64,000 nt of DNA from a virus. Positions 3,168 to 63,416 of this stretch are shown piece after piece. A program made the translations under genes and the position numbers. The stretch lies in IMG/VR virus record IMGVR_UViG_3300048587_000983; one strand, 5' to 3'. Positions within the stretch are counted from its first letter, which is position 1; the number at the start of each line of letters is the position of its first letter. A model generated the notes under the pieces. The model saw only the letters and a list, made by a program, of their open reading frames with translations. It had not been told where the DNA came from and did no database searches.

Positions 3168-6100
3168 TCACCCCACAGTTATGAAAGCGGAGCGCCCGGA
3201 GATGTCGGTCGCGCCATCATTGATAAGCATCTCGATATAGTAGCTTCGATCCGCGGCGGGCGGGACGAACGGCATGCTGAAGGCGAAGACGCCGTCTGCA
3301 TTCGGCGAGGCGAGGTTCGCCTCCCAAAGAAGAGCGCCTTCGGTGCTCTTGACCTTGATGCGTGCATTGCTCGCCGAAAGGAAGGGTGCTCCGTTCTTTT
3401 CAAGCCAGACTATGACTTCCTGCGTTTCATCGCTGGAGTTCAGCGTCGTGGACATCCTGCAGAAGGCGGTGTTGATCGTGATTTCCTCAACATCCTCTTT
3501 CGTTGCAAGGTCTGAGATATCAGGCCCGAAGCTCTGAGGATCCTGCGTAATCGTCCGGCTCGGGTAGGTCCAGATTTCGGCTGCAGTAGCGCCCCCGCCC
3601 CCGCCACCGCACACGTTGTCGATCTCGCTTAGGATATTCGCCTCGACCGTCGAAAGCTGCGAGCCTGTTGCAGGGTCGCTTGTGATCTGATCGGTTTTGG
3701 CCTTCACAAGATTCACCGTCGCCTGGAGCGTATTGAGCTTGGCTTCGTTCTGATTGATCTCGGAGGTCAAAGCCGTTTGAGTGCTCGACAGCTGGGCCGT
3801 AGTGGCCAGAGGGGCGAGGTCCGCGGCCTGTACCGTGCCTCTTGTCGATACCGCGACGTCGAGCCTTGTAAGACGCACATCGCTGGCCAGGACCGGATTT
3901 GTCGGACGCGCGAGAACGCTCGTCTCCTTCGCCGGATCTGGCGGGAGGTTGTCTGTCTTGGACTTGATGCCGGTGGCCTTGAGGTCGAGGTTGGCGATGG
4001 CTATCGACTGAGCCGAGAAGCCGCCTGTCACAACGGAAGCGGAAACCGGATCGGACGGCAGGTTGGTCGTTTTCGCCTGGATGGCGGATACGTCGGCCTG
4101 CATCGCATTGACGAGAATCTGCGTCTGATTGTCACCCGAGGTGATGAGTCCTGCCAGCGAGCTCACGGTGGACTCCTGAGCCACACCGGCGAGAGCGGAA
4201 GCGACCTGTGAAGCCGTTGCGCGGGTCGAGACCTGGGCATCGAGCATGTCGGCCACACGTTTGCCGAGAGAGCCGTTTACGGTCGCCTGCGAAGCCAGAT
4301 GATCCCAGATGGCCTTGACCGAGGCCGCGGGCAAGCTGAAGCTCGTCAGCTCGCGCGTGCCGTAACTCCAGACGCTGGCGGCGTCGAGGATCGAGCGGCT
4401 CGAAATCGTTGCGTCGAGGTTGTTGAGCCGCGGGTCGTTGGTCTTCATGATAGGCGTAAAGTCGATCTTGTCGTAGATCGCCGTGTTGTTGCGGTTGTCA
4501 GGACCAACGATGTAGTCCCGCGTCAGGTCGAGACGGGTCTGAATCTCATTGATGTCAGGGCGCGTCAACACAGTGGCGTTGACAGCCGAGACCGAGGCCA
4601 GCGTTGCCGGATCGTTCGGTATCAGATCGGTCCGGGCCTTGATGTTGATGAGAAGCAGCTCGTTGGCGTCAATTTCGCCGATGATCTGGCTTTGGCCTGT
4701 TTTGATGGCTGCAAGCCCGTACACTCCGGAGTTCACGGCGAGGTTTGTGTTGGTGACGGTGCCTTGAACACTTGTCAGCTGGGCCTGAATCGAGTTGAGA
4801 TCGCTCTCAAACTCTGTGATTTCAGTGACCGCCGGTACATAGCGCGTTGCCCCGTTCTCGATCACGGTCGCCTCAACGAGAGCCTGATATTCGTCCGTTC
4901 CCGAGGTTATGCTAAAATTATAGTAGTAAGCCCCCACTTTGACTCCGTCGGGCGTCATCGCAGCTCCCGCCACGATGTCGATGCCTGTGTCGAGTCTACG
5001 TATCCTTATTGTGGGGGTGCTATCCGGGGCCTCAGCGTGCCCCGTCTCATCATAGAGCCGCAGGTGGAACTGGTAGGTTTTGGTTCCACTCGTCGGCTTC
5101 ACCAGCCTCTCAGGAACAATAAACCGCACCGTTGTATTGTTTTGAATCGTCCCGATCTGGGCGGCGACGGCGTCGACCTTTGTTTCGACGACATTGATTT
5201 CGCCTATGATGCTCGACTCGGCGGCGGTCAGCTGCGTGGCCAGAGCCTCGATCAAAATCTGATTCTGATCAATCTCGCTTTTCAGCAGAGCTGTCTGCGA
5301 GCCGACGTAAGGTATGATGGCGTCGATCTTCGTCTCGTTCCCGTTGACCTCTGCTATGACAGCCAGTTCACTGTCGCCGATCGCGCCGAAAATCTGCGAC
5401 AGACCGTAGGTGGGGCTGTTGAGCTCGGCCAGGGTCGAGAGCGCGGATTGCCGGATGACCTGGACATAGTTGCCGAAGGTGTTCGGAAGGTTGTGTGGTG
5501 CGACAAGAGCGTCCCATACCGCAGCGGCGATTCCGGTTGGGGTCGAAGCTGTAAGGCTGCCGAGAGCCTCCCCCGTTGATCCAGGCGATGTGTGAGCAGA
5601 GAGCAGCTCATCCCATACTTCATCAACCACAGCGGCTCTGGATGCTGACGACAACGCGTAGTCCGTCTTATCCGAGACGACCTGCGCATTCGCGTTGACA
5701 TTGGAACCGGTGAAGGTCAGCTGATCGGTTTTGACTTTGATTGCGGTGACGTCGGCCGCTGTGGAGTCCGCGACGGCTTTAACCGCAGCGATATCAGCAG
5801 AGACGGTCGAGACCGGCGTCCCAATCTTCGTTTGAATGTCATCCGTATCGGCCTGCACACCGGCAATATCGGAGGTCAAATCGTTGAACCTTGTGAGCGC
5901 ATCGGACTCAGCCTGCCGAGTGGAGACATCAACATCGAGCCGCTTGCCAAAGCTCCCTGCTGCTGTGTGACCAGCCTGGAGCTCATCCCAAACGGCATCG
6001 ACCAGCTGGGCCTCGGCCGCCGGAGAGAGAACGACACCGCTCGTCCCCGTATCATCGAGAATCGCTGCAGTGTCCGCTTTCACAGCGGCGACATCAGCAC

Positions 6101-14149: not shown

Positions 14150-14665
14150 TTAATGGTGGCTCGAAATCGGCAGAGGCTCAGGTTCAGATGAGGTTTTTTG
14201 CTCACCTTTCAATGATTTCAGGCGACTGACGAGCAACGTTGGTACAGCGAAACCCAGGGCCCGCATGTTCTCCATGATGCTGATAGCCTCGGTCGCTGCC
14301 AAAAAAGTGATCATGATCACCGACGCAAAACCCATGGGAAGGGTTTTATCGACGAGCGACGCCGTGGCGATAAGAAGAAGGTAAACGGTGCATTTGAGCG
14401 AAAAGCGGAAAAACCCGTGGCTTGAAAGCTTTCCAAACTTGTATGCTTTGAAAGCGCCCGAGATGGTGTCGATAAAAATAAGACAGGTGACCGCGGCCAG
14501 ACCCTGGGTGTTGCCTTGAAAGACCCAGTGAAAGCCAAAAGCGACGGCTGAGAGGGCTGCCTTGACCCCCGCGTGGTCACTGATTTGCACGAGCACCGTA
14601 TGAAGCTTTGTAAAGCTGAAGTGGTCAGTGTAGTCGATCTGTGTCGGGTCGCGTCCAGCTGCCAT
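14150..14665 (-). CDS. Phage holin (toxin-secretion/phage lysis holin family, TcdE-like)
   Basis: LIFIDTISG..KA...LSS.GF...KC.VY...E.ISIMEN..ALG..VP..L is the characteristic family pattern. Multiple TM segments. Confidence 0.8.
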   Translation of the reverse strand: MAAGRDPTQIDYTDHFSFTKLHTVLVQISDHAGVKAALSAVAFGFHWVFQGNTQGLAAVTCLIFIDTISGAFKAYKFGKLSSHGFFRFSLKCTVYLLLIATASLVDKTLPMGFASVIMITFLAATEAISIMENMRALGFAVPTLLVSRLKSLKGEQKTSSEPEPLPISSHH

Positions 14666-15844: not shown

Positions 15845-16381
15845 TCAGTCTATTGTACCTTCAAAACCCACCGGCACAAAATGGAAAAAGGCGAGGTTGC
15901 AGAAGTTGCCAAGGTCAATCACATCCCGATAGTGTGGGTGGTCTGTCCCGCTGTACGCGAGAGCCTCGTTCGGCTGCAGAATGTAAGGTTCGTCGTTGAC
16001 GTAAATGGGCCAGGGGTCGCGCTGGCTCACGCAGAGGTCGATCGTATATTTGCACTGCGGGCGATCCGTGTGAAGAGGGCAGATGCCGCCCTCGCCGTAC
16101 ATGGAAAGAAACACATAGCTCGGCTTCACAGGCTCCGGAAAGATCGTCTCCGCAATACGCGCGAGATGCGGAGAATGATGGAGTCGGCGAAGAAGAGGCA
16201 GGTTATGCCAATACCAGCGATTGAACTTGCTGTGCATCTCTGCGTCTTTATCGTGGTACGGCGTACCCTCAAAAGCACGCCGGACCTCGCGTATGTGCAC
16301 GGCCAGATCGCTAAAGACAGCTTCCGGAAAAAGTTCTTTTACAACGGTCGGTCTCATCTGAATGGCTCCCCCGAAACCCAT
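15845..16381 (-). CDS. 2OG-Fe(II) oxygenase-like protein
   Basis: HTDRPQC (HxD), WPIYV, L.PNEALAYSGTD.PHYR (distal His/Arg) match the phage 2OG-Fe(II) oxygenase pattern. True start may be a little downstream. Confidence 0.75.
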   Translation of the reverse strand: MGFGGAIQMRPTVVKELFPEAVFSDLAVHIREVRRAFEGTPYHDKDAEMHSKFNRWYWHNLPLLRRLHHSPHLARIAETIFPEPVKPSYVFLSMYGEGGICPLHTDRPQCKYTIDLCVSQRDPWPIYVNDEPYILQPNEALAYSGTDHPHYRDVIDLGNFCNLAFFHFVPVGFEGTID

Positions 16382-16929
16382 GCGACAAGAGATTTGCGAA
16401 CACCCTTCGTCACGGGTTTTACACCATGGATTTCAAAACTTGGAAAAACGACGACAGTGCCCTGCTTGAATCTATGTTCGCCGCCGGCAAAGAACACAAG
16501 CTCGCCACCCTCGTAAGTTTCAGGGTCAGTGAGCATAAGGACCATGCTGAGCTTTCGCTGAGCCATCTGGTTTTTACCGAAGTCTGAGTGAAGGCGGTAG
16601 TGGGAACCCGAGTCGTCGTAAATTGTATACTGGAGCTTTTCCATGAAGCCGGTAAGCTGGAAACGATATCGGGCTTCGTTGGCGCCGCGTACGATGTAGC
16701 CAAGCTTATCGAAAAGCCAGGCTGTCTGCTCTTCAAAGCCGATCCACGAGTTCTTGGACTTGCGAGTTTCTTCGTAGATGCCGCCATCTCCCACCCTACT
16801 CTCAAGGGTTTCCAGGTGATCGCCGAGAGCAATGATTCGCTCGCATTCCTCTTTTGTAAAAGCGTCTTCAAAGAAGCAGTAGTGCTCAAAATCGGGCCGA
16901 GGCTCGTTGTGGAAGATATAAAACGTCAT
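16354..16929 (-). CDS. 2OG-Fe(II) oxygenase, prolyl 4-hydroxylase/PKHD-type
   Basis: HSD...RKLSMVLML.DP..YEGGEL...GTVVVFPSF..HGVKPVTKGVRKSLVAWVSG.PFR. Confidence 0.9.
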   Translation of the reverse strand: MTFYIFHNEPRPDFEHYCFFEDAFTKEECERIIALGDHLETLESRVGDGGIYEETRKSKNSWIGFEEQTAWLFDKLGYIVRGANEARYRFQLTGFMEKLQYTIYDDSGSHYRLHSDFGKNQMAQRKLSMVLMLTDPETYEGGELVFFAGGEHRFKQGTVVVFPSFEIHGVKPVTKGVRKSLVAWVSGEPFR

Positions 16930-35754: not shown

Positions 35755-36024
35755 TTACTTCCCGCGCATGAGATTGCCGTTACGATCCATAAAGCCGCCG
35801 CCTTTCAGGTCTTCCGGGGTCACCTTGCGCTTTGGGAACTTGCCGTGCCACCTGCCGCCGTCGGAGTTTTTCGACCCGTCCTTGTAGGTGTCAGGCGAAC
35901 ACTCACTGCAGAGGGCTTTTCCCACAAGCTCAGGCTTTCCAAAGTAGTCCTGGTCTCTTCCCCAGTAGTGTCCGAGGGCGGTGTTTTCAACACACTGGCA
36001 AAGGTCACAGACAAAAAGCGGCAT
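35755..36024 (-). CDS. Small Cys-rich (CxxC...CxxC) protein (89 aa)
   Basis: Start reassigned to ATG 36024 (TGATG overlap): MPLFVCDLCQCVENTALGHYW...LCSECSP. Confidence 0.7.
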   Translation of the reverse strand: MPLFVCDLCQCVENTALGHYWGRDQDYFGKPELVGKALCSECSPDTYKDGSKNSDGGRWHGKFPKRKVTPEDLKGGGFMDRNGNLMRGK

Positions 36025-36833
36025 CAGCGTCCTCTTCTCAAAAGTTTTTTGGCACCTTGAACTGCATATGGTGCCGCAAGCGTGCCGAGACCGGCAAGCT
36101 CGAACTTGTCTTTCGTGTGCTCGTTCATCGGTTTTCCACGGAGATTTTGGATGCTCGGCACAGCGAGAAGACCAAGCCCGCCCAGTTCGGCGGCGATATT
36201 GGCCTTTTTCTCGAAGCCGAGCCAAAAGCCCTTCTCGAAAGCCAGTTTTTGAAACCAGTCGGTCTCCTGAATGGCTTGCCAGGCTGCATTGATTTTCGAC
36301 ATGGTCTCCTCGCTCCCGCCCTTGTCGGGGTGGTGTTTCATGGCAAGATTGTGAAAAGCGCGCCTCACCTCGCGCTTTGTCGTTTCGTTGCCGGATAAGT
36401 CGAGCGTTTTTTTAAGATCGCTCACCGAGGCCGAGCCCCGGTTCCAGTTTCCGGCGCGATGCCAGCTCTGCTCGTAGCTCTGATTCCGGTATTCCTGGCG
36501 ACCCTGCTGGCGGTAGCCTCTGGAACCCGAGGTCAAGGAGCTCGCCCAAAGACCCGCCATGCCCCCTGACAGCGCACCGATAAGGGCGTCACGCCGGGGC
36601 GCATCCTTCAGCTCTTTTTTCACAGCCTCGTCCTCGAAAGCTTTCAGCTCCGGCGTGTCGGGCTTAATGCCCTTTTTCGCGGCCTCGCGCCGCACCTTTT
36701 TCATGAAATCGGAGTCGTAGCGGATGTCTTTTTCGTCAAGAGTGAGCCTGGTCGAAAGATAGTTCGTCGCGCCGGCTGCTCCTGCGCCCAGAAGAGGGAG
36801 CATCACCATGGGGTTTTTCAAAGGGTTTTGCAT
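36024..36833 (-). CDS. J-domain (DnaJ-like) containing protein
   Basis: LDLSGNETTKREVRRAFHNLAMKHHPDKGGSEETMSKINAAWQAI has an intact HPD motif. Followed by the FWLGFEKKA motif. Confidence 0.85.
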   Translation of the reverse strand: MQNPLKNPMVMLPLLGAGAAGATNYLSTRLTLDEKDIRYDSDFMKKVRREAAKKGIKPDTPELKAFEDEAVKKELKDAPRRDALIGALSGGMAGLWASSLTSGSRGYRQQGRQEYRNQSYEQSWHRAGNWNRGSASVSDLKKTLDLSGNETTKREVRRAFHNLAMKHHPDKGGSEETMSKINAAWQAIQETDWFQKLAFEKGFWLGFEKKANIAAELGGLGLLAVPSIQNLRGKPMNEHTKDKFELAGLGTLAAPYAVQGAKKLLRRGR

Positions 36834-40872: not shown

Positions 40873-43098
40873 TTAGAAGCTGAGTACGTCTTTAAGCCTT
40901 GCAAGGGACTGGCCGACGCCGCTGCTGGAGATGATCCCGCAGAACGCCTCCTGGATACTGAAGGAACCACCGAGGCTGTTGAAGCGAAGGCAGTCCTGGA
41001 GGTTTTTGAAGATGGCAAGATCGAAGTCGATGGAGAACTGGATATTGAGAAGATCGGCATCCTTTTCCAACTCGAACTCGATCTGACTAAGCTTGTCGCG
41101 GCTCGCCTGGTCAGGAAAGCACTGCTTTAAAAGTGCCACGGATGCGAGAGCGGCACCCACAAACGTCGCCTCTTTGCTGTTGAGCTTAAAGAATTTGTTA
41201 AAATCGCCGGACTCCAAAAGCTCCTGCGCGTTATCGAGCCCAGCGCTTTGAAGAAGCGCAAAGATTCCGTCGCCGATCTTTTTTATGGTGTCCTCAAGCT
41301 CAAAGGGAGTATCGACAAACCGCTGGAGGATGGCGGCTATCTCGTTGTCGCGGGAAACGGTGATGGCGAGTCTTTTGAGGACCGAGCGGGCCACGCCCAG
41401 CACTTCCGTCCGCACCGTGGCACTGATAGGGGCATTATTTGCCTCAAGAAGAAAGACGAGGAGCTGACTTTCAAGCTCGGCCGTCTGCTCCTGGGCATCG
41501 GTTGCCCGGAAGACCGCCCCTTCGATCTTGATATCGTCAAGCTTTTTGAGGTTGACGACTGCTGTTTGATAGGCGTTTGCCGACTGCTGACTTATGTTCA
41601 AAGCATCAAGTGCCCCGGACGGCGACTCCAGTTTAGCCCTTGCGAAAGTCGGATATTCCGGCTCAAGGCGACCAGCCAGCGTAAGAAGCACGACATCGTT
41701 CTCCTGACTAAGTGTGGCGGCGTGCACCCGTGCCAGCGTTGTGACCACATTGTTGGCCGCAATTGATGCTCCAAGCACAGTGATGCGATCACCCTGTTTC
41801 GGAGTCCGGGGCAGGCCTGCACTCAAAATGAGTATCTGGTTGGCCCCGACAGAGACCTTTGCCAGTGCGCCTGGAATCTCAGCCGTCCCGATGGCGACAA
41901 TCGTGGCAGCTTGCACGTAGGTCGTAAACTGCCCGGTTGGTATCGTCTTAAAGTTTTCAAGGATTATACTGAGGTCCATCCCCCACTTGAACGCTTGAAC
42001 GGAGGCGGTCAGAGGCTGAGGCTTAAAGCCGCCGATAGGCCCCGCAAAGGCCGTAGGCGAACCGTTGAGGATATCAGCCATGGAGCCCGCGACGTTATCC
42101 ACCCGGTTAAGGAGAGGGTCAAAGAGTGAGAGGATATATTTTTTGTAGTAGGCGGGAAGACCGCTCGTCATCTGACTTAGAGCCGAGATGAAGGCAGCGA
42201 TTCGCGCATTGATGTTGACCACGATTTCAAAGTAACCTTCCGCAGCCTCAATCACCTGTTTTGAAACCTTGGGGATTGAGATCGTGGCCTGAACCTGCTG
42301 CTCTGTGGTCGGCACAGGCGGGTTCTCAAAAAGCCCTATGGCCGCGATTTGCCCGGCTTTCACGGCATCGACCGCGCTGTTCCCCGTCGTGCCGTTGGCA
42401 AGGGGGTTATTGACAACGCTTGTCAGTGTGCTCTTGTTGACAGTTCCGCCGGCCACGCCGCGGTTGATGCTTTGGTTCGGGAGGGGTGGCGTGACGAGCG
42501 ACCTGGCTCTTTCGAGCGAAGCCTTCGCCGAATCAAAGCGCCTTGAAAGCCATAGATCCCTACGGACGAACGTATTTCGGACCAGAAGAAGATCGGTACG
42601 AGCCGAGCGCACGTCAAGGAGGGCTCGTCGAAGCTGGGCGATGTAAGGGTCATAGACCGGGTTTCCCTGAGTGAGAATTTTAAGAAGGTTATAAAGCTCT
42701 GTGACCTTTGATGATAGCTCGGCAAGGATCTCCTGCTTTTCCCGCAAAAGCGTGATGGTATTGGTCGCCAGTCGCCGCACGAAGTACATCACGAGCTCGT
42801 TGTTAGCCATGATGCTCGCCGCGAGAATGTTGTTGGCGAGGTTGAAGGCCTGCTGAGCTGTATCCTCAAGCCCTGTCGCCTGCAGCGCTTCAATGAGGAC
42901 GACGCCTGTGTTCTGCCTAAGATATTCGCCCGCAAATGACGAAAGGGGACCGAGGCCCCCTGACGCTGCATCGACGAGCTTGCCGGAAAGCTCAAACGTC
43001 ACAAGGTTCCCCGGGTCAGAGAGCTTCATCTGAAGCAGCGCCAGGTTTTCAATAATGTTATCGGTACATTTTTTAACGAAGTACGCGCCAAGACTCAT
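40873..43098 (-). CDS. Hypothetical (putative virion) protein, about 741 aa
   Basis: Start reassigned to ATG 43098 (ATGA overlap with upstream stop). Confidence 0.7.
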   Translation of the reverse strand: MSLGAYFVKKCTDNIIENLALLQMKLSDPGNLVTFELSGKLVDAASGGLGPLSSFAGEYLRQNTGVVLIEALQATGLEDTAQQAFNLANNILAASIMANNELVMYFVRRLATNTITLLREKQEILAELSSKVTELYNLLKILTQGNPVYDPYIAQLRRALLDVRSARTDLLLVRNTFVRRDLWLSRRFDSAKASLERARSLVTPPLPNQSINRGVAGGTVNKSTLTSVVNNPLANGTTGNSAVDAVKAGQIAAIGLFENPPVPTTEQQVQATISIPKVSKQVIEAAEGYFEIVVNINARIAAFISALSQMTSGLPAYYKKYILSLFDPLLNRVDNVAGSMADILNGSPTAFAGPIGGFKPQPLTASVQAFKWGMDLSIILENFKTIPTGQFTTYVQAATIVAIGTAEIPGALAKVSVGANQILILSAGLPRTPKQGDRITVLGASIAANNVVTTLARVHAATLSQENDVVLLTLAGRLEPEYPTFARAKLESPSGALDALNISQQSANAYQTAVVNLKKLDDIKIEGAVFRATDAQEQTAELESQLLVFLLEANNAPISATVRTEVLGVARSVLKRLAITVSRDNEIAAILQRFVDTPFELEDTIKKIGDGIFALLQSAGLDNAQELLESGDFNKFFKLNSKEATFVGAALASVALLKQCFPDQASRDKLSQIEFELEKDADLLNIQFSIDFDLAIFKNLQDCLRFNSLGGSFSIQEAFCGIISSSGVGQSLARLKDVLSF

Positions 43099-43826
43099 TT
43101 TTTGAAAGCCTTCTCCGCGCGCTCGCGGATCCGTGCGTGAAGCGCCCGAACCTTGGACGCCGACCATCCATTTCTCTGCCCGATACCTTCAAAGTCAATC
43201 TTGCCGTTGGCCTTGACCATCTTGGGTTTGCCGTGCTCGCCCGTTATGAAATCGTAGACGACCTGCTCATCACCAGGGAGGCTATAGTAAAGGTCCGAGA
43301 TGATCGCGCGGTCAATACTTGATTCATAAAACGGATGAGTCTCAACCCCGTCGGAGATGGAAAGGTTTTTGTGAATCTCGCGCTGCGTAAGCTCCACGGT
43401 CTTGACGCTCCACCCCAGCCGGTCGGCAAGCTCCACGGCAGACGGCTGCCGGTCAAGCTCGGCGCGCAGATTCTCCGTCTCGTTTTGGAAAAGCCCGATA
43501 CGGGTCGCTCGCGGCTCGCTCATCTTTCCGACGTTCGCATAAAGATAGTTGAGGCGTTTTCCCTTTTGATTGACGGCAGTATAGACGTGGCTTTGCAGCG
43601 ACGCCCCGCCCTCAGGTTTAAACGTCCTGAGTGCATCGAGCATGTTTTGAGCTGCCCAGATCTGATGGGCACTTTGGGGGATCGTTGAGCCGTAGGAGGC
43701 CTTGCGGGCGGCATCGAAAAGAAGCGGTTTCATGCTGTTATAGAGACCCTGGAACGCCTCTTTTGAGCCCGTCTGCTTCCACTGGTTGTAAAGATCAATC
43801 TCGGTTTTCTTGCGATCTTCAGCCAT
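43095..43826 (-). CDS. Sigma-70-family-like RNA polymerase sigma factor
   Basis: Start ATG 43826. Region-2-like LDALRTFKPEGGASLQSHVY, region-3-like L.R.PS..ELA..LGWS, and region-4-like HTH at the C-terminus (GQRNGWSASKVRALHARI). Confidence 0.75.
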   Translation of the reverse strand: MAEDRKKTEIDLYNQWKQTGSKEAFQGLYNSMKPLLFDAARKASYGSTIPQSAHQIWAAQNMLDALRTFKPEGGASLQSHVYTAVNQKGKRLNYLYANVGKMSEPRATRIGLFQNETENLRAELDRQPSAVELADRLGWSVKTVELTQREIHKNLSISDGVETHPFYESSIDRAIISDLYYSLPGDEQVVYDFITGEHGKPKMVKANGKIDFEGIGQRNGWSASKVRALHARIRERAEKAFKK

Positions 43827-45888
43827 TGAAGCCCCTCTGCTTTTTGAGGATGTCCCGGTACCGCACAATCACATTGCGCTTGAGCGTGATAACCGATTGG
43901 TCGGCCTGCCCGACCCGAAGGAACTGGTTGCCCGAGAATTCAATGAACTGGGCGTTTTCCAGGTCCTTGACTCCGGTCGTCGCGCTTATAAAAGTCATGG
44001 CGTCACGCATTTTAACATAATCACGAGAAGTCACAGAAGCTATGTATCCCATGATATCAGCGTTCTGCTCGCGCTTCTTCGCATATTCCTGAAGGAGCTT
44101 GCGCGAGGCCCCAAGAAGCGTTGTCTCGCCCGCATAGTAATTCGTGAGCGCCTTTGAGCCCTTGGCACCGAGAAGATCCGCGTAGAACTCCGAAAGTCTC
44201 GCAGTGGAGACGTGCTGATTTCCAAGGCTTTTAACCTCCTTCGGGGCCGCCTCCGAGGGGGGAGGCGTTGTCACGGCACCAAAGATGGCCTCGTCAAACC
44301 AGGGCGGGATAAGAAGCTGCGTTCCAAAGCTGCTCGATACGTCCTGCTCTGCGACGGTGCGGGCGTAGGTCAGCTGCACGTTTGTGTAGCCGCCCTCGGT
44401 TGCGTAGATCCTGTGGGTGACCGATGCGCAGTAGGCCGTGACGGTCTGGTCGGCATCGCTTTTATCAAGGATGAGGACGGGGAAGCCGGGCACAACCGAC
44501 ATTTTAAGGTGGCTCGTGATCTGAAGCTGCCGCTTCTGAAACCGCTTTTTAAAAAAGAGGTAACGCGCGACGCGCTGCGTGAACTCCTTCTTCCCATGAT
44601 CGTCGAGGGCTGAGCGGAACTGGGTGGTCGCGGGCATCATACTTTCCCTCGCCACCCATATCCCCTTGTAGATCTCTTCGTTTGTGAGGAACTGAGCCTC
44701 GCGTTTTTTAGCGTTGTTGACCGAAGCCGCTGCCGACGAGTCATCGTCATAGAACTTCCCGTAATCGACGCCCACAGGTGTCTGGAGGGCATCGCCACCC
44801 GCAAAATTAGCGGAGGGCTGCTCGCGCAACATGAAGTTTGCAAAGCTCGGCGGTTCGTAGACATGAGGCAGAAAGACGACGCTGCTCGCGGCGCCTAGTC
44901 GCGCGGGAAGCTCCGGCGTATAGATGAGGCGCGTTGGCTCTTCAAAAAAGTTTCTGCTAAACTGAAAGCTCGAATATTCATCGGGGAAAAAGATATTACA
45001 GACTGGAGGCGGCATCATGTAAAGGTTAGGCTTGAACACAAAACTGCCGATGGTCTGAGCATTGCTACTCACACCGGGCAGAGGATTTTTGATTTTACTT
45101 TTTACGCGGCCGGGGAAAGGCACGGTGATCATATCGTGGAAGATGAGCGACATCAAATCTTGAATGATCGAGCGGAGCGAGGTGTAACCTGAGTTGCGCC
45201 CCACAATCCCCTCAAACCATTCAAGCGCCTCGTTCTGCTCCAGTAGTTGCTGCAGCTTACCGCTCGATCGCAAAACGATCCTGTCTATGATGCGGAGCCG
45301 CTCCTCTGCGTTCTTATAGAAATCGTTCACGACCGAAAAACTTTTATAAAGCTCGACGAAAGCATCAAGAAAATCTTTCGTGGGATCCTTCAGGACGTCA
45401 GCGATCTTTTGCCTATAAAAACTTGACTGTGCAGGTACCACGGGCTGGATTTTTATGCCTTGCTTTTCCGCATCAGTACGGTCGAGTGCCTGCCCAGATA
45501 GCTCGTTTGTGCCTTTGCCGAGACTCTGCTGCGCGTTGAAAAAGTAGGAGAGTACGTTATCCCAGTAGGAGCTCTCATCGATGCAGGAGATTGAGAAAGT
45601 CCTGTCCGATGCGGTCTTGCCAAAGTTATACCCGAAGACCTCACCCTGCCAGGCGAGAATATAAGGGAAGGGCGTCCCCGAGTTGGTGCCGGCCGCCGTA
45701 TCCATGTAGTTGCGGACAAAGATCTGAACGAGCGAGCGGGGCTTGATCGAGTTGATCGTCTGATGCGGGACAAGGTCCACATAGGCGATCGATGCCTGGT
45801 TGACCCCCGTGTTGATCGTGGCCCCTATGAAAGGGACCTCAATACCTTCAATCAGAAGCTTGGCGCCTAGTGGCCTTCCTTGTGCCAT
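43819..45888 (-). CDS. Putative baseplate hub protein (gp27/late-control-D-like), 689 aa
   Basis: KLLIEGIEVPF...F.GEV..Y...R.FSI.C.D at the N-terminus; position two genes downstream of the tape measure-associated small ORFs. Confidence 0.6.
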   Translation of the reverse strand: MAQGRPLGAKLLIEGIEVPFIGATINTGVNQASIAYVDLVPHQTINSIKPRSLVQIFVRNYMDTAAGTNSGTPFPYILAWQGEVFGYNFGKTASDRTFSISCIDESSYWDNVLSYFFNAQQSLGKGTNELSGQALDRTDAEKQGIKIQPVVPAQSSFYRQKIADVLKDPTKDFLDAFVELYKSFSVVNDFYKNAEERLRIIDRIVLRSSGKLQQLLEQNEALEWFEGIVGRNSGYTSLRSIIQDLMSLIFHDMITVPFPGRVKSKIKNPLPGVSSNAQTIGSFVFKPNLYMMPPPVCNIFFPDEYSSFQFSRNFFEEPTRLIYTPELPARLGAASSVVFLPHVYEPPSFANFMLREQPSANFAGGDALQTPVGVDYGKFYDDDSSAAASVNNAKKREAQFLTNEEIYKGIWVARESMMPATTQFRSALDDHGKKEFTQRVARYLFFKKRFQKRQLQITSHLKMSVVPGFPVLILDKSDADQTVTAYCASVTHRIYATEGGYTNVQLTYARTVAEQDVSSSFGTQLLIPPWFDEAIFGAVTTPPPSEAAPKEVKSLGNQHVSTARLSEFYADLLGAKGSKALTNYYAGETTLLGASRKLLQEYAKKREQNADIMGYIASVTSRDYVKMRDAMTFISATTGVKDLENAQFIEFSGNQFLRVGQADQSVITLKRNVIVRYRDILKKQRGFNG

Positions 45889-58157: not shown

Positions 58158-58418
58158 ATGATGACGAGCGAGGAAGTCGAAAGAGTCGTGACGGCGATCT
58201 GCAAAAAAGCTGGTCTTCTTGTTGGGCAGCTCGCCAGCCCACAAACCTTTGACCATCTTGTGTACGAGGCGGCGCGTCTTCACATTTCCCACCTCGTCGG
58301 CAAAGACGCCATCCACGGAAACCTGAAACTGCACGACCCTCTTCACTACGAGGCGGCCCTCAACCTTCTCGACAGTGAGATCAAAAAAGCCAAGGCGGAG
58401 GCGGCAAGACGTGGTTAA
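58158..58418 (+). CDS. Hypothetical protein (86 aa)
   Basis: ORF with SD (GGAG) after the primase gene. Confidence 0.65.
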   Translation: MMTSEEVERVVTAICKKAGLLVGQLASPQTFDHLVYEAARLHISHLVGKDAIHGNLKLHDPLHYEAALNLLDSEIKKAKAEAARRG

Positions 58419-58815
58419 CGCACTGGTCATGTCCAACTTCTTTCGGGTTTCAGATGAGAAAGAGTTTGAGCGGTTTGTGAAAAAGTGGGACCTTACGCCG
58501 CTGAGGCGGGACGGCGATCGCTTCGGCTTTAAGCGGGTAGGGAAGGAGTCGCCGGGGATCCCAAGGGCTCATCAGGGAGCCGACGGAAGGCCTATCGTTG
58601 GTGATATCCTGCGGGACCTTGCGGCAGTCCTGTCTGCTGACGACGTGGCGATTGTGATGGAAAACGTCGTCTACCCGGCTCGTGCGGTGGTGCGCCTGAA
58701 CGCGGTTGCTGTAAAAAAAGGAGAGGATCCGATACGCCTCTCTTTGAACCAGATCTATGACCTTGTGCTTGAAAAGTGGGGCGCTGTCCCCACAAAGATC
58801 GACTGGGCTGTTTAA
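58411..58815 (+). CDS. Hypothetical protein (about 134 aa)
   Basis: GTG 58411 with GGAGG at 58397-58401; overlaps the previous stop. Confidence 0.65.
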   Translation: MVNALVMSNFFRVSDEKEFERFVKKWDLTPLRRDGDRFGFKRVGKESPGIPRAHQGADGRPIVGDILRDLAAVLSADDVAIVMENVVYPARAVVRLNAVAVKKGEDPIRLSLNQIYDLVLEKWGAVPTKIDWAV

Positions 58816-58824
58816 GGAGATTTC

Positions 58825-59067
58825 ATGAGCGATACGTTTTTTCATCCGGACTGCTTCAAAGACGAGGCGGCCGAAAAGATCTTTGCCATTTTGCACCTTG
58901 CCGGCGGATATCAGTGGGGGCTTCTCGGGATTACGCAGCTGCATTTTCTTGACAAAGAGAAGAGGGAAGCGGAATTTGAACGCGTGCGCCGACTCATCGA
59001 GAGGAGCTGCCATCCCAGGGCGGACGAAGCGCTGGAGAAATTCCGTGAGATCACGGGTGCAGCGTGA
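58825..59067 (+). CDS. Hypothetical protein (80 aa)
   Basis: Strong SD (AAGGAG); coupled to the next ORF. Confidence 0.7.
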   Translation: MSDTFFHPDCFKDEAAEKIFAILHLAGGYQWGLLGITQLHFLDKEKREAEFERVRRLIERSCHPRADEALEKFREITGAA

Positions 59068-59351
59068 ATTGGGCGCAGAACATGAAGGAGGTTCAAATGC
59101 CAGATTCAAACGCCATAATCGTGGACGAAAGCGCATCGGTAACGCGTGAGGACATTTTACAGGCGGGCTTCGTTTCCGCTATGCGCATTCCAATGCAGGT
59201 TGGTCTGGGGTTCGCCTGGACACGAAAACCTTCGCGTAAAAGGCTAAGAGATAAAGTCCGAAAAGCCCCGCACCGCTATCCGCAGTTCGCGGAGTATCTG
59301 ATCGGCGACCATCCAGCCACATGGCCCTCCAACCGTCAGCCCGTCCGGTGA
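59064..59351 (+). CDS. Hypothetical protein (95 aa or shorter)
   Basis: GTGA overlap; alternative internal starts possible. Confidence 0.55.
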   Translation: MNWAQNMKEVQMPDSNAIIVDESASVTREDILQAGFVSAMRIPMQVGLGFAWTRKPSRKRLRDKVRKAPHRYPQFAEYLIGDHPATWPSNRQPVR

Positions 59352-59361
59352 GGGCGTGCCG

Positions 59362-59523
59362 ATGTCAGGTAAATCCATAGTTCAAATGATTCAAGACGAG
59401 CTTGACGCGGAGTTCCTAAGATCACTGGAGGTCTGGCGTCCGCGCAAGCTGCTCTCTGTCCTTGAAAATCGAGCAGCCGACTTTATCTCACTCGCTTTCC
59501 TGCATTACCTCATGGCTCTCTGA
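59362..59523 (+). CDS. Small hypothetical protein (53 aa)
   Basis: MSGKSIVQMIQDELDAEFLRSLEVWRPRKLLSVLENRAADFISLAFLHYLMAL*; below track cutoff; converges on the RNA cluster. Confidence 0.4.
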   Translation: MSGKSIVQMIQDELDAEFLRSLEVWRPRKLLSVLENRAADFISLAFLHYLMAL

Positions 59524-59527
59524 CCAT

Positions 59528-59648
59528 TGCGAGACGGGGGAGCGTCACTTCCCCACAAGGCTGACCGTACCCATTAAACCCCGAACCCTGGACTTTTCCT
59601 GTCTGCTGCAGCGCGGATCGTCTTCGGGGCACCTTTAACGCGTCTCAC
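59528..59648 (-). ncRNA. Unidentified ~120-nt structured RNA candidate
   Basis: Minus strand: terminal 8-bp stem GTGAGACG/CGTCTCGC + A, adjacent 5-bp hairpin GGGGA/TCCCC, internal 7-bp CCCCGAA/TTCGGGG. Begins 12 nt after the tRNA-like RNA. Confidence 0.45.
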
Positions 59649-59660
59649 GATGATCAGAAG

Positions 59661-59817
59661 TGGGGGAGGCAGGACTCGAACCTGCGAAGCCTCAAAGACT
59701 GAAATGCTCAGCCGTGCACGGCCGGAAATCTCAGCCGACGGGGCCCGGCGCCAGACCCGCATCAGAGACAGGGGATTTCCTGAATGTCCCCCTGCTTTGC
59801 CACTTGCATACTCCCGC
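59661..59817 (-). ncRNA. Atypical tRNA-like RNA (157 nt) with 11-nt anticodon loop and 85-nt branched variable arm
   Basis: Acceptor GCGGGAG/CTCCCCC-A (one C.C mismatch), D arm TGC-AAGTGGCAAA-GCA, anticodon stem GGGGA/TCCCC with loop CATTCAGGAAA, canonical T arm GCAGG-TTCGAGT-CCTGC. Confidence 0.8.
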
Positions 59818-59823
59818 CGTAAG

Positions 59824-60210
59824 TGGACCTGGCGGGAGTTGAACCCGCGTCCGAAAGACAAAGGCAATGACAGCTCTACATGCTTGTCCCCGGGTCAACT
59901 CCGGGGCGAGGAAGGGTGCACCGGTTAGGGTGCAGCTCCACCAGCCAGGATCTGGCTACGGCTCCTGGCGGCCGCTTTTGCCCTCAGATGACCCGCTGAC
60001 GGCGACGGGGCTGGTCGGATAACGGCACGGGCCAGCACGCTCCCTGGCTGCGATTAGGCGGCCAGCGCGACCTTTTCAGCCTTGCGGCCGAACTCTACGC
60101 GGATGACATTATCGGTGTCATTTAGGTTTTGCCTCGGTTGTTATCGGGCCCCAAGACACGCCCGGCATGCACCGGCACTCTTCGCCTCCCGTCGAAACCA
60201 TTACAGGCCC
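59824..60210 (-). ncRNA. ssrA: tmRNA (transfer-messenger RNA)
   Basis: 5' GGGCCTGTAATGGTTTCGACGGG; 3' GCGGG-TTCAACT-CCCGC-CAGGTCC-A; acceptor stem with G3.U pair (Ala identity); internal tag ORF ending ALAA*. Confidence 0.95.
60054..60119 (-). other. tmRNA proteolysis tag reading frame (A)DTDNVIRVEFGRKAEKVALAA*
   Basis: Resume codon GAC after AAAACCTAAAT; C-terminal ALAA ClpXP-type degron. Confidence 0.85.
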
Positions 60211-62924: not shown

Positions 62925-63416
62925 TTGCTCTATTGCTACGATACTGGCAGGCCGCCAGATTTAAACGATGTGCATGCGATTATAAGAAAGGCATTCAAAG
63001 AGCGGGTTGCTGTAAGCGTCGAGGGTACCAGGGTTTACGTTGCCACAACCGAGACGCCGCTCGTAACCCCGGACGCCACCTTTGATATGCTGCGCCTCCC
63101 CGAGGGCACTGTTGAGGTTGAGCTGTCGTGCAATGTCGTCTTTGATAGCAAGAGCCAAGGCATTTTCCGAAAGGAGTGGCGGACGCACGAGGCCTTTGCC
63201 ATGTTCACGGCGCAGGCCGGCCTCAAGCCTATAGACTCAGAGATCTATAACCTCGGCCTTCTTGAAACCCACAAGTTCACGATCCGAACGGCTTTCCGCA
63301 TCTACGGCCAATTCAATATTGTCAACCGGGAGCTATTCGACAACGCATATTTCAACGGGGTCGGCGGGCGCCGCTCGTACGGCTTTGGTCTGATCATCAT
63401 CAAAGATTTCAAATAA
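62925..63416 (+). CDS. cas6: Cas6-family (Cas6e/CasE-like) RAMP endoribonuclease, short (163 aa)
   Basis: C-terminal Gly-rich loop FDNAYFNGVGGRRSYGFGLI (GhGxxxxxGhG), N-terminal DVHAII..AF His helix; TTG start with SD GAGGGA. Confidence 0.8.
   Translation: MLYCYDTGRPPDLNDVHAIIRKAFKERVAVSVEGTRVYVATTETPLVTPDATFDMLRLPEGTVEVELSCNVVFDSKSQGIFRKEWRTHEAFAMFTAQAGLKPIDSEIYNLGLLETHKFTIRTAFRIYGQFNIVNRELFDNAYFNGVGGRRSYGFGLIIIKDFK

Follow-up and report, generated by a model that had tools for sequence, protein, structure and literature searches.

The window analysed here, a 64,000-nucleotide (64-kb) stretch of viral DNA (IMG/VR record IMGVR_UViG_3300048587_000983) with a G+C content of 56%, appears to be part of a large phage genome. 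On its minus strand, three closely packed RNA genes follow one another: a one-piece transfer-messenger RNA (tmRNA), a tRNA-like gene of 157 nucleotides (nt), and a third structured RNA (Table 1). The subject of this analysis is the tRNA-like gene, a derivative of tRNA-Tyr in which a large, branched domain occupies the variable arm. The parts listed in the original prediction, namely, the D arm, the T arm, A73, the 11-nt loop in the place of the anticodon loop, the variable region, its closing helix and the two hairpins within it, were all found in place and on the minus strand. The descent from tRNA-Tyr, the location of the insert in the loop of the variable arm, a mismatch in the acceptor stem, and the packing of the gene between the tmRNA and the third RNA are additions to that prediction.

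Table 1 Features of the tRNA-like gene, the adjoining RNA genes and selected protein-coding genes of the window.
Feature	Coordinates	Strand	Description	Basis
tRNA-Tyr-derived tRNA-like gene, whole	59661..59817	minus	157 nt; G1 = 59817, A73 = 59661	sequence, folds
Acceptor stem, 5' strand GCGGGAG	59811..59817	minus	partner CUCCCCC, 59662-59668; 6/7 paired, C2.C71 mismatch	
D arm	59793..59808	minus	3-bp stem UGC/GCA; loop AAGUGGCAAA with A14, G15, G18, G19, A21	fold
Anticodon-arm equivalent	59771..59791	minus	stem GGGGA/UCCCC; 11-nt loop CAUUCAGGAAA (59776-59786)	
Variable region	59770-59686	minus	85 nt; closed by GUCUC/GAGGC	
Y-shaped domain (insert)	59689..59769	minus	81 nt, in place of the native variable-arm loop; closing helix GUCUC/GAGGC	
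Hairpin 1 of the insert	59737-59763	minus	4+7 bp, one bulged C, loop GCGC	
Hairpin 2 of the insert	59697-59736	minus	9+6 bp, internal loop UUC/AGC, loop UGCA	
T arm	59669..59685	minus	GCAGG-UUCGAGU-CCUGC; perfect, same as the T arm of host-type tRNA-Tyr	
Phage tmRNA, one-piece	59821..60210	minus		ARAGORN; Rfam RF00023, 104.6 bits
Third structured RNA	59520..59657	minus	starts 3 nt after A73	folds
Holin	14150-14665	minus		
2OG-Fe(II) oxygenase	16354-16929	minus		
DnaJ domain protein	36024-36833	minus		
Sigma70 region 3	43095-43868	minus		weak match, below the Pfam cut-off
Cas6-like short protein	62925-63416	plus	~3 kb from the RNA cluster, at the right edge of the window	C-terminal CRISPR_assoc (Cas6e-type) match, E = 2.4e-5

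The body of the gene is that of a tRNA. U8 and A9 lie between the acceptor and D stems, G26 follows the D arm, and the C directly 5' of the T arm is able to form the G15:C48 Levitt pair; in the pair list of the fold, the elbow and the tertiary core are complete (U8, A14, G15:C48, G18, G19, A21, U54-A58, and G53-C61). The T arm, the D loop and the core bases are canonical, and six of the seven acceptor pairs form; of the six pairs that were scored, G1-C72 has a predicted pairing probability of 0.47 and the other five have probabilities of 0.95-0.97. CCA is encoded neither by this gene, which continues into the 3' trailer CUU, nor by the adjoining tmRNA. The original description of the element as a tRNA-derived gene with an intact upper body is borne out by the retention of the core bases and by the 3'-terminal 31 nt, which are those of a tRNA-Tyr.

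These 31 nt, which comprise GGCUUC, the T arm, the 3' acceptor strand and A73, are identical at 31 of 31 positions to the tRNA-Tyr of Bradyrhizobium, Rhodopseudomonas, Nitrobacter, and related genomes, and because the match to a real bacterial tRNA-Tyr is exact, the tRNA frame is not a product of chance. The scan for the 31-nt segment took in at least 120 stretches, those listed belonging to the Bradyrhizobium group or to related uncultured Alphaproteobacteria. In that bacterial family, 243 of 401 genomes matched the query at E <= 0.001; among the matches listed in those genomes, all fell on the 3' segment, and none on the tmRNA, the insert or the third RNA. The last 25 nt of the gene are present in 14 IMG/VR loci, mostly in class II tRNA-Tyr(GUA) genes. 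The resemblance to tRNA-Tyr extends into the 5' half: the D loop AGUGGCAAA is identical to that of the Bradyrhizobium-group tRNA-Tyr, the 5' 28 columns of the alignment are about 75% identical to the host-type tRNA-Tyr, and the D arm UA-UGC-AAGNGGNAAA-GCA recurs in an ordinary phage tRNA-Tyr (comparison locus L089:12850-12934). In the variable arm, the outer three pairs of the closing helix correspond to the host variable stem GCC/GGC with a single C-to-U change; the base of the stem being that of the host, the insert takes the place of the four-base loop that the native variable arm carries. Judging from the sequence, the descent of the element from a class II tRNA-Tyr specifically is unambiguous. 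It shares with the tRNA-Tyr(GUA) of the Bradyrhizobium group the 3' 31 nt, the D loop, A73, G1-C72 and the base of the variable stem, and differs from it in the 11-nt loop without GUA, the 81 nt that stand for a 4-nt variable loop, the C2.C71 mismatch, the D stem of 3 rather than 4 bp, the unencoded CCA and the failure to match tRNA models.

The phage tmRNA shows a similar pattern of 3'-end identity, its last 34-38 nt (59820-59857, minus strand; a trailer of no more than 4 nt included) being the same as in tmRNA genes of Lachnospiraceae, Edwardsiella, and a Patescibacteria genome. A host inference from this segment was rejected, the same 34-38 nt being found across unrelated phyla. Because the 3' end of the tmRNA is common to unrelated phyla, short 3'-end identity is an unreliable guide to the host, and this applies to the match with the Bradyrhizobium-group tRNA-Tyr as well. 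Furthermore, the contrast between the fully identical 3' end of the tRNA-like gene and its more divergent 5' columns gives the gene a mosaic appearance, and the host-identical 3' end might be taken for a phage attachment site (attP) used for integration into tRNA-Tyr, or for a scar of gene conversion, rather than for a part of a selected RNA. tRNA-Tyr is indeed used as an integration site in IMG/VR contigs, one comparison locus (L011) contains the 3' part only, and the 3' trailer UCUGAUC is similar to some host trailers. However, no integrase family was found among the predicted proteins of the window that were tested, and the element is surrounded by replication and structural genes of a large phage genome. 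A matching 5' half with a D arm and an elbow is more than an attP calls for, and the tRNA-like 5' half of this gene is complete; the 3'-end identity can also reflect strong conservation of acceptor and T arm sequences, as in the case of the tmRNA. We regard the recombination site or relic as a very unlikely explanation of the gene.

The descent from tRNA-Tyr notwithstanding, the element is not a standard tRNA. At default settings, ARAGORN calls the tmRNA and passes over the tRNA-like gene, and Rfam yields no tRNA match to it either at the gathering score or at E <= 10; these scans had been named as checks in the original prediction, and in both, the standard finders miss the element as a tRNA. 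A covariance model of our own, built from 38 class II tRNA-Tyr genes, scored genuine tRNA-Tyr at 70 bits and produced two split partial hits to the tRNA-like gene, of 30 and 8.6 bits. In the anticodon arm, a 5-bp stem exists, with a loop of 11 nt instead of a 7-nt loop with U33, and the sole GUA in the 157 nt falls on positions 7-9, at the acceptor/D junction. The inner seven bases of the loop, UUCAGGA, have the look of a Leu(CAG)-type anticodon loop with a C.A and an A.A mismatch on its flanks; reducing the loop to seven bases would require both mismatches and add two extra layers to the arm. With an 11-nt loop and no GUA, the arm is unfit for standard decoding, in agreement with its earlier characterization as non-decoding.

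The Leu(CAG)-like loop and the preserved acceptor end could also be seen as the marks of a working adaptor that is CCA-tailed, is charged with Tyr (by way of A73 and G1-C72) or with Leu (by way of A73 together with the class II core), and serves either the ribosome or another aminoacyl-transfer enzyme, UUCAGGA acting as its anticodon loop. Class II variable arms face away from the ribosome-binding surfaces, and the seven central bases of the loop fit the Y-U-NNN-R-N pattern. In bacteria, A73 and G1-C72 are the acceptor-end determinants recognized by the tyrosyl-tRNA synthetase (TyrRS), with a contribution from G34 and U35 of the anticodon, and the Escherichia coli leucyl-tRNA synthetase (LeuRS) requires A73 and can do without the anticodon and the variable arm (PMC9976931). 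The element retains A73 and G1-C72 and lacks G34 and U35. Against an adaptor function, the two extra helix layers that come with the mismatched 7-nt closure would break the fixed distance between the anticodon and CCA, the 2:71 mismatch lies within the acceptor/T-stem branch that is recognized by EF-Tu (PMC5389517), and the branched 81-nt arm is far beyond that of any known decoding tRNA. In our estimation, it is unlikely that the element serves as an adaptor.

When introns are allowed (-i), ARAGORN does report a tRNA at this locus, tRNA-Glu(ttc) i(33,81), that is, a tRNA-Glu(UUC) interrupted after position 32 by an 81-nt intron, which would be spliced to a working tRNA with the loop CUUUCAG, canonical in form. 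Splicing, however, would produce an anticodon stem with three consecutive G.U pairs where the unspliced RNA offers the perfect GGGGA/UCCCC; the 32/33 junction is non-canonical, and 81 nt is far below the size of group I and group II introns. No intron or ribozyme family in Rfam matches the tRNA-like gene at the gathering score or at E <= 10, and bacteria are not known to possess the bulge-helix-bulge splicing enzyme. If the insert in the variable arm were removed instead, the 11-nt loop would stay, and therefore no excision yields a normal tRNA. The excision of the insert to leave a standard tRNA, an outcome considered in the original prediction, is thus unlikely, given the non-standard tRNA that its removal would be expected to produce, and the intron specifically proposed by ARAGORN strikes us as highly improbable.

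The insert is structured and branched, as originally proposed, and its fold is strand-specific. For the 81 nt taken alone, the minimum-energy fold is exactly the drawn three-way junction, at -39.7 kcal/mol (z = -2.7 relative to dinucleotide shuffles, 6 of 500 being equally stable), whereas the reverse complement reaches just -20.9 kcal/mol (z = +0.9). The 31 base pairs of the insert include 18 G-C, 6 A-U, and 7 G.U pairs, and no A.C combinations occur inside the helices; because the opposite strand turns each G.U into an A.C mismatch, the structure is assigned to the same strand as the tmRNA. In the context of the whole RNA, the full cloverleaf with the insert has an energy of -65.7 kcal/mol, a gap of 0.8 to the unconstrained optimum of -66.5 kcal/mol. 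The C2.C71 mismatch of the acceptor stem had gone unmentioned in the original prediction, and the argument made there that the wobble pairs are a sign of selection is weakened by its derivation from one sequence. Within the insert, hairpin 2 holds an internal direct repeat, with two copies of GGCUGAG(C)AUUUC, and the AUUUCC of this hairpin is complementary to GGAAAU of the 11-nt loop, which makes a loop-loop contact possible.

Two candidate identities of the insert were examined and rejected. The insert opens with CUGAUG, reminiscent of a hammerhead ribozyme, but the next base is C, no GAAA follows helix II, and there is no ribozyme match at E <= 10. A mobile palindromic repeat was dismissed as well, no second copy of the insert being found in the window or, by BLAST, in about 3.1 Mb of comparison loci.

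The packing of the three RNAs is tight. The tmRNA discriminator A (59824) is followed by the 6-nt trailer CUUACG and then directly by G1 of the tRNA-like gene, and at the other end, 3 nt separate A73 from the third RNA, which has a terminal helix of 8+8 bp with single-base bulges (CUGAUCAU/AUGGUCAG plus GUGAGACG/CGUCUCGC) and matches no Rfam family. We delineate a minus-strand unit that consists of a gene for a membrane-like protein of 398 amino acids (aa), the tmRNA, the tRNA-like gene and the third RNA; the spacers of 6 and 3 nt suggest the layout of co-processed tRNA operons. The end of the third RNA is 4 nt away from the stop codon of a convergent small gene on the plus strand, where five small, tightly coupled open reading frames (ORFs) located after the primase gene (58158-59523) converge on the RNA cluster; these seem to be the true genes of this segment, and none of the five has a Pfam match. 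This plus-strand series stops at 59523, and no protein gene plausibly spans the RNA region. An ORF of 228 aa on the minus strand (58450-59136) was judged to be spurious, with its antisense-like composition and no family match.

The heptanucleotide CAGGAAA is found on the minus strand both in the 11-nt loop of the tRNA-like gene (59776-59782) and in an apical loop of the third RNA (59595-59601). A third copy lies at 59496-59502, inside a small plus-strand ORF, for a total of three copies within 300 nt; the whole window contains 16 copies, on both strands.

The reading that we favor, with about even confidence, is that the element is a processed, non-decoding RNA derived from tRNA-Tyr, which comes from one precursor with the tmRNA and the third RNA and in which the insert is the working part. 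It draws on the descent from tRNA-Tyr, the complete set of bases critical for the tRNA fold, the strand-specific folding of the insert, the short spacers to the two flanking RNAs, and the examples of T5 RNA1 and of a gene in a 402-kb phage, both described below. The transcription, processing, stability, partner, and function that we infer for it would be as follows. The minus strand would be transcribed into a single precursor, with the tmRNA upstream and the third structured RNA downstream of the element, which would be cut out by RNase P together with a 3' endonuclease, such as RNase Z, or with exonucleases; we propose this route of excision because the element has the acceptor stem, T arm and elbow of a genuine tRNA. 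CCA may be added afterwards. The resulting RNA would read no codon, because its loop has 11 nt, the Tyr anticodon is absent, and the arm becomes too long if the loop closes further. The tRNA body would provide a stable, nuclease-resistant frame as well as the processing signal, and the 81-nt two-hairpin domain would be the working part, most likely, a binding platform for a protein or RNA of the phage or the host. As a side effect, the RNase P cut at the 5' end of the element would leave the tmRNA with a 6-nt 3' trailer, trimming the tmRNA precursor.

Several observations weigh against this reading. The 157-nt RNA as a whole is not exceptionally stable (z = -1.1), and in the predicted ensemble, the canonical D, anticodon, and closing helices reach merely 0.02-0.25 probability, with other registers competing for the D and anticodon stems. 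The C2.C71 mismatch in the acceptor faces a 3' strand that is identical to that of the host tRNA and looks like a result of relaxed constraint. Neither a sigma-70-type promoter upstream of the tmRNA on the minus strand nor an intrinsic terminator was found in the region scanned. The predicted proteins of the window that were tested include no candidate partner (TROVE/Ro60, RNA ligase, nucleotidyltransferase, or synthetase), and nothing else similar to the insert was found in the window or, by BLAST, in about 3.1 Mb of comparison loci. Moreover, the case is built on one sequence, from which the pairing of the insert is predicted.

The main rival explanation is a dead gene, that is, a phage or captured host tRNA-Tyr that was disabled by a palindrome in its variable loop and is now drifting without selection. 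The acceptor mismatch would be readily accommodated under such a scenario, along with the wrecked anticodon loop of 11 nt that lacks GUA, the loss of the CCA present in the host-type gene, and the rejection by tRNA finders at default settings; at the DNA level, both hairpins of the insert are almost perfect palindromes, which is what an inserted repeat would look like, and relatives of the element were not found in our searches. Nevertheless, all the tertiary-core bases are kept, and all five helices of the tRNA frame are still paired. The anticodon stem is unlike that of the host at most positions and yet forms a perfect helix of 5-6 bp, and the non-Watson-Crick positions of the insert are all G.U on the transcribed strand, with no A.C, a bias that random decay would not favor. 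The palindromes, having no other copy in the window or in the 3.1 Mb of comparison loci searched, show no sign of being mobile repeats, and phage genomes usually purge dead DNA. Accordingly weighed, the dead gene is a possibility that we take seriously while doubting it.

The closest described kind of molecule, in architecture only and not in sequence, is RNA1 of phage T5 (AY543070, 30501-30644), which is annotated as a "tRNA-like stable RNA with unknown functions" and has RNAI, RNAIII, and RNA2H as neighbors. Folding of T5 RNA1 gives a body of the tRNA-Leu type, the anticodon loop of which is enlarged by about 45 nt. Both RNAs are phage-encoded, belong to RNA gene clusters, and combine a class II body with a large extra structured segment in a length of about 145-157 nt. 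In T5 RNA1, however, it is the anticodon loop that holds the extra segment, and the long variable arm next to it is normal, whereas the extra domain of the window element grows from the variable arm; furthermore, the T5 RNA is of the tRNA-Leu type and the window element of the tRNA-Tyr type, with no sequence similarity between the two, and the former is annotated as a stable RNA, whereas the latter is known here from its sequence.

A search with DNA patterns that combine a tRNA-Tyr frame with a long insert produced a single match in IMG/VR, in a phage of 402 kb (L005:1308-1454), and none in metagenome or genome contigs. This tRNA-Tyr-type gene, located in a tRNA array beside a normal tRNA-Tyr, has a variable region of 78 nt that starts near a UGUCUC motif, as does that of the window element. 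The two genes are identical over the 25 nt of the T arm and acceptor strand, both have UGGCAAA in the D loop, and ARAGORN misses both. The anticodon loops of both are non-canonical, that of the L005 gene being UGGUAGA, odd in having G at position 33. The L005 insert, in contrast, consists of one long hairpin, a small hairpin, and a tail of 14 nt, and it cannot be aligned with that of the window element; the L005 gene has a perfect acceptor stem and scores 46 bits with the Rfam tRNA model, neither of which holds for the window element. The baseplate protein of the window, a tmRNA, and a TROVE match were all undetected in the L005 phage.

Other searches for relatives of the locus, which used the 398-aa protein, the 228-aa ORF, the Cas6-like protein, or an alignment, returned none among viral, metagenome, and genome contigs. 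The 398-aa protein itself has 11 homologs, with 91-35% identity, in Logan, JGI, and ENA assemblies. A tblastn search against GenBank phages gave nothing useful, blastn of the region gave nothing, and a pattern of two successive T arms, the first that of a tmRNA, lacked specificity and picked up mostly tRNA arrays. A rough census of the comparison loci identified about two dozen more tRNA frames with large inserts that ARAGORN does not call, which implies that objects of this general kind are not rare.

Some of the comparison loci have features of their own. The phage tRNA-Tyr(GUA) at L038:5416-5571 (minus strand; IMG/VR 3300028887_000080) has a normal variable arm, and its anticodon loop is expanded by an insert of about 75 nt; it was discarded as a parallel to the window element, the preceding "tmRNA" being a false positive of ARAGORN. 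At L003:4697-5183 (IMG/VR 3300044512_003283), a GOLLD RNA (198.8 bits) is located inside a phage tRNA array and contains a circularly permuted tRNA-Tyr-like module (~4770-4830), in which the T arm, the 3' acceptor strand and CCA are followed by a short loop, the 5' acceptor strand, and the D arm; its 25-nt T arm/acceptor sequence is that of the window element. Tandem tRNA-like genes of 120-142 nt, all missed by ARAGORN, are present in L213:5170-5728, L220:5320-6015, L173:4484-4776, and L205:5604-5730, which come from contigs of bacterial metagenome-assembled genomes (Polyangiaceae, Haliangiales, Longimicrobium) and a Cylindrospermum genome; these genes have a common insert with the motifs GCCCG...CGGGCCG and GGUUAUCG.

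The combination of a tRNA-like part with other structured modules is also characteristic of the YrlA RNAs (RF02553), found in phages too, in which a tRNA-like module comprising D and T arms is joined to a Ro60-binding stem and is a substrate for tRNA enzymes, with RNase P and CCA addition described in M. smegmatis (PMC4201824). Given that a phage Ro60 with Y-like RNAs has been published (PMC12135203), the window element could be conceived of as the counterpart of a Y RNA, bound to a Ro60-type ring protein whose gene would lie elsewhere in the phage. The topology of the YrlA RNAs is the opposite, however, the RNA ends forming the protein-binding stem and the tRNA-like part being internal; RF02553 does not match the element at E <= 10, and neither the GNCGAA motif of YrlA nor an ACAGCAA motif was seen on reading the element. 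No TROVE domain was detected in the tested predicted proteins of the 64-kb window, which is part of a larger genome, and the analogous L005 phage likewise has no TROVE match. We consider a Ro60 partner improbable. Two further kinds of RNA resemble the element in particular respects. The t-elements of plant mitochondria, which are tRNA-like processing signals (PMC1920247), and mascRNA of MALAT1 have in common with it a tRNA shape directly after another RNA, and the RNase P or RNase Z cut sets the 3' end of that RNA, as it might for the tmRNA here, but these are eukaryotic or organellar and lack a large payload domain. The allo-tRNAs and tRNA-Sec-like tRNAs of bacteria and phages, which have 8/4 or 9/3 acceptor/T geometry and a 7-nt anticodon loop and are drawn with a single long variable arm (PMC5389517), resemble the element in being non-canonical, in the length of the variable arm, and in escaping gene finders; in contrast, the window element has 7/5 geometry and a branched 81-nt arm.

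Beyond the RNA cluster, the proteins predicted in the window include a holin, a protein with a tail-fibre N-terminal domain, Baseplate_J, an AEP primase, and an SNF2 helicase; the window proteins of 1100-2138 aa have no family match. Other protein genes, including that of the Cas6-like protein, are listed in Table 1.

The jobs suggested for the element in the original prediction, namely, an aminoacyl donor, a decoy, or a scaffold, would be indistinguishable in the sequence at hand. A more specific and rather doubtful proposal is that of a natural "tRNA scaffold", a tRNA-Tyr body cut by RNase P and RNase Z, tailed with CCA, and displaying the 81-nt domain. Such an RNA might take part, with the phage tmRNA, in a takeover of translation quality control, or act as a decoy for host nucleases or other enzymes that target tRNA-Tyr, and with the third RNA would make up a three-RNA operon of tRNA-ended effectors.

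The ancestry of the element is readable in either case: the elbow, the T arm, and the acceptor end have been kept, and the anticodon arm and the variable arm have been rebuilt. Should the element be a pseudogene, it would be an ordinary relic. If, conversely, the RNA is stable and functional, it would mean that phages use tRNA bodies as carriers for other RNA domains, much like the synthetic "tRNA scaffold", and that a class of phage RNAs is under-reported by the standard tRNA finders; the location of the element directly behind the phage tmRNA would then offer a testable link to the maturation of the tmRNA or to ribosome rescue during infection.

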